Positions 59,207 to 59,224 of a stretch of DNA of 64,000 nucleotides are shown here, piece after piece (positions within the stretch are counted from its first letter, which is position 1; each line of letters starts with the position of its first letter). Source of the stretch: Escherichia coli (GTDB lineage Bacteria; Pseudomonadota; Gammaproteobacteria; Enterobacterales; Enterobacteriaceae); NCBI RefSeq assembly GCF_003334385.1, contig NZ_QOWN01000009.1; one strand, 5' to 3'. The notes beneath the pieces are model-generated. The model made no database searches and was not told the origin of the DNA. It saw only the letters and a program-made list of their open reading frames with translations. The translations under genes and the position numbers were made by a program.

Positions 59207-59224
59207 ATGTTCGTTATCGAACAT
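59207..59224. promoter_or_regulatory. GlpR operator in the glpD/glpE divergent control region
   Basis: atgttcgttatcgaacat: perfect 7-bp inverted repeat around TTAT, matching the GlpR operator half-site consensus. Confidence 0.75.

Follow-up and report, generated by a model that had tools for sequence, protein, structure and literature searches.

The intergenic spacer between the divergent glpD and glpEGR units of Escherichia coli contains a short inverted repeat, which raises three linked questions: whether the repeat is a binding site for the repressor GlpR, which of the two units it would serve, and whether the strain that carries it also carries a repressor able to act there. In the 64,000-nucleotide stretch of DNA analysed here (the window), the repeat is almost certainly the high-affinity operator OD1 of the glpD promoter, adjoined at 59186-59205 by a weaker tandem operator, OD2, from which pair GlpR would repress by promoter occlusion. 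The elements of this reading that were computed here are a consensus and matrix match, tandem phasing, promoter overlap, cross-genus conservation and an intact glpR gene; GlpR binding and its cooperativity, the GlpR tetramer, induction by sn-glycerol 3-phosphate (G3P), the exact transcription start and DNA looping are carried over from published work.

The operator pair is already known and is ordinary textbook biology, the locus being the same as that of OD1 and OD2 of glpD in E. coli K-12 (Ye & Larson, 1988, J Bacteriol 170:4209; Yang & Larson, 1996, J Bacteriol 178:7090). The Reg-Seq study refers to these two papers for the GlpR sites of glpD, and it counts glpD as one of the four classical operons under GlpR control, which have multiple operators (PMC7567609). 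A literature search found no paper on genome-wide GlpR ChIP-exo.

The Locus and Its Repressor Gene

The window is E. coli chromosome; its segment 58700-59900 is 99.9% identical to K-12, and the locus was present in all 5426 complete genomes compared. The genes glgP, yzgL and glpD lie on the minus strand and glpE, glpG and glpR on the plus strand, and the ATG codons of glpD (59173) and glpE (59363) bound a spacer of 189 bp (59174-59362). This layout bears out the divergent setting that had been proposed for the site in an earlier note, made from the sequence alone. GlpR, GlpD, GlpE and GlpG all scored above their NCBIfam equivalog cut-offs, and the features of the region are collected in Table 1.

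Table 1. Coordinates of genes, promoter elements and assigned or candidate protein-binding sites in the glpD-glpEGR region of the window.
Feature	Coordinates	Strand	Remarks
glpD	57668..59173	-	NF008899 of NCBIfam at 835.9 bits (cut-off 360); annotation
Reported OD3/OD4 stretch inside glpD	58607..58649	.	Contains a pair of weak matches, offset by 21 bp
Second tandem GlpR operator OD2	59186..59205	.	CACTTTCGTTAAAGCTCATA; abuts OD1; within the glpD leader, at about +11 to +30
Primary GlpR operator OD1 of glpD	59206..59225	.	AATGTTCGTTATCGAACATA; includes the 18-mer; about -10 to +10 of the glpD promoter
Predicted glpD -10, TAATAT	59223..59228	-	Permissive promoter scan; 3' half within OD1
Predicted weak glpD -35, TTACCT	59246..59251	-	3/6 match, 17-bp spacer; permissive scan
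CRP-like site	59271..59286	.	AGTGATATGTATAACA; centre 59278.5; class I geometry, at about -61.5 to -63.5 relative to the start of glpD
Candidate GlpR-like site	60544..60563		AATGCGCGAAAACGAAAATA; spans the glpG stop and the six codons before it; 17 nt separate it from the ATG of glpR
glpR, DeoR-family repressor, intact	60581..61339	+	NF008154, 552.8 bits against a cut-off of 331

The same note had claimed that glpR is intact, which proved correct: the gene is a full-length open reading frame of 252 codons, and its product is identical to WP_000815099.1. Relative to the reference MG1655 sequence (NC_000913.3), the window has one extra C (60731), which restores the frame; glpR of MG1655 has a 1-bp deletion and carries a pseudogene annotation. 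At position 55 the repressor has the wild-type glycine, and the G55A allele of GlpR found in the C600 lineage is constitutive (PMC2763269). Because glpR is full length and has the wild-type Gly55, the expectation that the glp regulon of this strain is normally repressible is reasonable. In comparison with OD1/OD2 of K-12, the operator itself is the same, whereas glpR is intact in the window and frameshifted in MG1655. Over the 9.6 kb from glgP to rtcB (54401-64000), only five positions differ from MG1655, none of them in the spacer.

A Full Match to the GlpR Consensus

The 18-mer ATGTTCGTTATCGAACAT lies exactly at 59207-59224, the position at which a perfect inverted repeat had been described. 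The position stood up, but the perfection did not, as only 16 of the 18 bases are self-complementary (eight of nine pairs), with a T/T clash between 59214 and 59217. The symmetry consists of two 7-bp arms flanking TTAT, a form that is not rare by itself, with nine inverted repeats of the 7-4-7 type in the 64-kb window. The two non-complementary bases coincide with degenerate W positions of the GlpR consensus. That consensus, 20 bp long and composed of inverted 10-bp half-sites WATGTTCGWT (in full WATGTTCGWT·AWCGAACATW), is said to have been derived by Zhao and colleagues in 1994; a literature text search found no text quoting either the consensus string or the operator sequence.

When the consensus WATGTTCGWTAWCGAACATW was compared with 59206-59225, all 20 positions agreed, and no other segment of the 64 kb matched it even with up to three mismatches allowed, nor did such a match arise in shuffled sequence (0/100). 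The proposed agreement with the GlpR half-site consensus was thus borne out, and the repeat is a perfect GlpR consensus match and not a perfect palindrome. The match being unique in the window and absent from the shuffles, it is the agreement with the consensus, and not the symmetry, that lies far beyond chance.

A symmetrised matrix built from seven sites of glpFK and glpT/A, with no glpD site among them, provided a second comparison, of the kind on which the earlier note had staked its reading. Among some 64,000 window positions, this matrix ranked 59206 first (23.3 bits, z 5.4), a result that favours the note's reading but is not fully independent of the consensus test, because the consensus was originally derived in part from the glpD operators and was also used to pick all seven matrix sites. 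The control regions for comparison were those of glpT/glpA and glpF in MG1655, in which consensus matches of at least 13/20 numbered four (0.69 expected) and three (0.63 expected), respectively. The glpF matches were spaced with a phasing of 20-21 bp, and those at 4170, 4190, 4211 and 4232 of locus L003 reproduce four tandem sites; four operators are stated for the glpF region (PMC2753651). The operators of glpFKX and of glpTQ/glpABC therefore share with glpD the logic of 10-bp half-sites and a tandem phasing of 20-21 bp, but their sites are much more degenerate (11-15/20), full agreement with the consensus being confined to glpD.

De novo motif discovery in the glpT/A and glpF regions was uninformative with respect to shared k-mers, the best 10-mer seeds being no better than those from shuffled sequence, as the operators are too degenerate for discovery from two short regions. 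This failure fits the remark of the Reg-Seq authors that nine of the 17 GlpR sites in RegulonDB deviate from the consensus at nine or more of 22 positions (PMC7567609). A search for single half-sites with one mismatch allowed likewise gave no enrichment in the window (17 observed, 14.5 expected). As the only full consensus match among very degenerate glp operators, the glpD site would make a clean positive control for GlpR motif scanners.

A Tandem Partner and Weak Sites Inside glpD

A scan for additional tandem GlpR sites, suggested along with the original observation, found one in phase at 59186-59205, offset by exactly 20 bp from OD1 toward glpD. This segment, OD2, agrees with the consensus at 14 of 20 positions, a score of 14 or more being reached at only 16 positions in the 64 kb. 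It stands at rank 35 in the window with the matrix that omits glpD. The segments beginning at 59186 and 59206 form the only tandem pair with 20-22 bp spacing in the window.

Repression of glpD is reportedly strengthened by internal operators about 0.6 kb downstream, a result credited to Yang and Larson in 1996. The stretch from +568 to +609 (58607-58649 in the window) is the one that we take to hold these auxiliary operators, OD3 and OD4. The matches found there, 58609-58628 with 11/20 and 58630-58649 with 10/20 (matrix ranks 3020 and 1750), are at background level; they are consistent with the papers but cannot be demonstrated from sequence. Auxiliary operators inside a gene would liken glpD to the looping systems of lac (O1, O2 and O3) and gal (OE and OI), but the internal sites of glpD, at 10-11/20, are unrecognisable from sequence here. 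The paper of Yang & Larson (1996) is cited without quotation for the GlpR sites of glpD (PMC7567609), and elsewhere in support of possible DNA looping by GlpR; no loop-type synergy was seen with GlpR sites placed in a synthetic lacUV5 context (PMC7804116).

The glpD Promoter and Its Upstream Elements

A permissive scan of the glpD strand of the spacer returned a single promoter-like -35/-10 pair, with a predicted start near 59216. The start of glpD transcription, as mapped by Ye and Larson in 1988, reportedly lies 42 nt upstream of the ATG, which corresponds to 59215 here, and the predicted and reported positions agree. Together, OD1 and OD2 cover part of the -10 element, the predicted start and the early leader (approximately -10 to +30). 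Ye and Larson are also said to have footprinted GlpR on the glpD operator, and their paper and that of Yang and Larson reportedly give the operator pair the same extent, from about -10 to +30. A strict promoter and terminator scan of 59100-59450 returned nothing, as is expected of an activator-dependent promoter. The block GGTAACAT at the glpD -35 is conserved across genera. The supplementary data of Kim et al. (2012), searched by gene name and b-number, have no entry for the glpD start site.

Scanning 59174-59362 for a CRP site, a further check that had been proposed, returned a conserved CRP-like site at 59271-59286. It has two mismatches to TGTGA-N6-TCACA and is not significant alone. CRP cores at two mismatches are not enriched in the window (19 observed, 22.6 expected) and, like the single half-sites, tell little out of context. 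Across genera, 19 of its 22 columns are invariant, and its spacer swaps TG and CA while both arms are kept. A single CRP site has been reported to serve the divergent pair glpEGR-glpD; the SELEX screen of that study itself did not recover glpD/glpE (PMC3105977).

The segment 59249-59287, read by eye on the glpD strand, also contains direct repeats (TGTTA, TGTTT and TGTTA, at spacings of 22 and 11 bp) that extend over the -35 region and into the CRP site. The repeats could be candidate ArcA-type half-sites, which would be consistent with the published ArcA control of glpD.

Conservation of the Spacer

Within E. coli, the 32-bp core at 59205-59236 had a match of at least 99% identity in 5323 of 5426 genomes, and four divergent strains differed locally only at 59200, 59204 and 59246, all outside the 20-bp site. 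A scan of approximately 100,000 species genomes with the pattern ATGTTCGWTAWCGAACAT returned 48 loci, 17 of which contain a glp gene, although the one in L048 is just a fragment of glpK lying 2.7 kb away. In 14 enteric loci, from Escherichia, Citrobacter and Salmonella enterica arizonae and diarizonae, the exact 18-mer lies directly upstream of a glpD orthologue. The distance from its end to the ATG is 32-33 nt in the 13 enteric loci whose GlpD match reaches residue 1, and 33 nt in the window. In Photobacterium (L008), the 18-mer is again upstream of glpD (61% GlpD identity), but next to glpT-glpR instead of glpE, and is accompanied by one extra in-phase half-site. In locus L037, the site comes after glpR, where the sequence covered ends, and no glpD is visible there.

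The cross-genus set consists only of genomes that carry the exact 18-mer, and the invariance of OD1 across nine enteric lineages is therefore uninformative; only the flanking blocks are unbiased. In the alignment of enteric spacers, which are 71-79% identical to the window between genera and 97% identical within Escherichia, the fraction of invariant columns reached 1.00 in OD1, on which the set had been selected; the CRP site (0.86), OD2 (0.75) and the -10/-35 stretch (0.63) followed, and the glpE-proximal part came far below them (0.16). OD2 accordingly keeps 15 of its 20 columns across Escherichia, Citrobacter and Salmonella, including an invariant CTTTCGTTA core.

The exact 18-mer also occurs in 31 loci that contain no glp gene at all; about half of these occurrences fall inside long open frames and some within longer, unrelated hairpins. 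A rough calculation gave about 17 exact 18-mers expected by chance over the approximately 100,000 genomes, and the 31 loci were treated as chance or unrelated occurrences. Several have unusual contexts. In three of them (L010 at 1716, L024 at 1248 and L040 at 10220; Bacteroides and Ruminococcus), the 18-mer is part of a longer perfect palindrome, CTGGATGTTCGWTAWCGAACATCCAG, inside a 444-codon open frame. In two others (L022 at 8137 and L026 at 10089), the 31-nt context of the 18-mer is identical at 30 of 31 positions between an Akkermansia metagenome-assembled genome (MAG) and a Limnohabitans genome. In L046 and L047, at contig ends of one MAG, it lies inside GGGGCG...CGCCCC hairpins. None of these copies is related to glp genes, and they may derive from mobile elements or assembly artefacts.

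Which Unit, Which Regulator

The question of which unit is served arises from the position of the pair in a 189-bp spacer that is common to both, and from the report of a single CRP site for both promoters. These features would suit a shared operator, at which GlpR represses both glpD and glpEGR and glpR is thereby autoregulated from the same site. Yet glpE-lacZ fusions are said to have been expressed equally in glpR+ and glpR- backgrounds. The operator sites are on the glpD side; seen from the glpE ATG, they lie past the CRP site and at least 138 bp away, and conservation is poor in the glpE-proximal part of the spacer. The Larson laboratory, moreover, reported that neither the glpEGR operon nor its main promoter is under GlpR control (PMC2593051). 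A shared operator is thus very unlikely, and the literature indicates that the site serves glpD only.

The arms of the repeat could instead be thought to act as an RNA or DNA hairpin, that is, as a terminator, an attenuator or an element of mRNA stability, and not as a protein site. As RNA, the 40-nt stretch does fold (-9.7 or -9.8 kcal/mol, with a z of about -3.5 to -3.9), but this much is expected of any 7-bp inverted repeat. There is no T-run or terminator-like site at the repeat, and no credible Rfam family was matched, the only match being to a eukaryotic snoRNA model (E 0.78). With a start at the centre of the repeat, one arm only would be present in glpD mRNA, and the folding of the leader is like that of shuffled sequence (z -0.69). 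The protein-site consensus is matched at all 20 positions, including the unpaired ones, and a function as a hairpin is extremely unlikely.

That the palindrome is mainly the target of ArcA or of another DeoR-family paralogue, its resemblance to a GlpR site being secondary, seems just as far-fetched. In favour of such a regulator are the TGTTA/TGTTT-like repeats just upstream, the literature on control of glpD by ArcA with respiration (Iuchi et al., 1990) and the many DeoR paralogues of E. coli, among which AgaR, SrlR, DeoR, UlaR, YgbI and YciT gave weaker matches. However, the ArcA-like repeats lie outside the palindrome, which itself matches the GlpR consensus in full and ranks first with the matrix from other glp operators, and the site co-occurs with glpD and glpR across genera. 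Finally, the abundance of 7-4-7 repeats in the window and the roughly chance-level occurrence of the 18-mer in unrelated loci would be compatible with a chance repeat of no function, a reading reduced to a vanishing probability by the unique consensus match, the tandem partner, the near-constant distance to the glpD ATG across genera and the near-universal conservation in E. coli.

With the repeat read as OD1 of glpD, a familiar mechanism can be proposed. GlpR, which would be supplied by glpR 1.4 kb away in the same window, is reported to bind the two adjacent 20-bp sites cooperatively when inducer is absent. The bound sites would cover the 3' part of the -10 element, the transcription start and the first ~30 nt of the leader, and with GlpR over the -10 element and the start, RNA polymerase would be unable to form a productive complex. 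Binding of G3P to GlpR would, according to published work, release the repressor from the operators. Full expression of glpD would also need cAMP-CRP at the site centred approximately 62 bp upstream.

A Candidate Site at the glpG-glpR Junction

The second-best matrix match in the 64 kb (17.9 bits) lies at the 3' end of glpG, 1.34 kb from the glpD operators, and agrees with the consensus at 16 of 20 positions. The site is kept at 15-18/20 in all ten enteric loci examined, even though the amino acids encoded there and the distance to glpR differ. The region retains two CGA arginine codons, a codon used for three of 117 arginines in four neighbouring genes. We know of no GlpR site described at glpR, in RegulonDB or elsewhere. 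These features hint, at rather low probability, that the segment may be a further, undescribed GlpR site, which might form a roadblock past the internal glpR promoters and so weakly autoregulate glpR, or serve as a distant partner in looping. Coding constraint is confounded with conservation of the site, however, and the report that glpEGR is not regulated by GlpR (PMC2593051) also speaks against it. The GlpR sites in RegulonDB, 17 in number, are in four promoters (PMC7567609).

Other Differences from MG1655

Several differences from MG1655 were observed beyond the operator region. In rtcR (minus strand, approximately 61321-62919), a 10-bp deletion at 61930/61931, where K-12 has GTTCCGGCGA, causes a frameshift and leaves two overlapping open reading frames. 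The ten bases are present in every one of the 4267 full-length matches from complete E. coli genomes, and none of these genomes runs uninterrupted across the deletion junction, so that the deletion is private to this strain. RtcR, which activates the rtcBA operon of RNA repair, is presumably inactive in it.

Two missense changes relative to MG1655 are GlpD S116C (58828) and GlpG A60V (59912). For 58700-59900, the 12 best matches listed were all 99.9% identical and none was 100% identical, and GlpD S116C may thus be rare. In yrhA (approximately 37759-37767), the window is without the 768-bp IS1E insertion of MG1655. In rhsB, 14 substitutions are clustered within 240 bp (1578-1818), which looks like gene conversion between rhs elements. 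Besides IS1E, the rhsB cluster and two small indels, the rest of the 64-kb window differs from MG1655 by 31 substitutions.

Implications for the glp Circuit

Beyond annotation, the significance of the operator is small. In this strain, the wild-type circuit that controls aerobic G3P oxidation is complete, with the consensus operator pair, the CRP site and an intact repressor. With this circuit complete, the lineage is predicted to show normal G3P-inducible, glucose-repressible expression of glpD, in contrast to MG1655 stocks that carry the glpR frameshift and to C600-lineage strains with the constitutive G55A allele.
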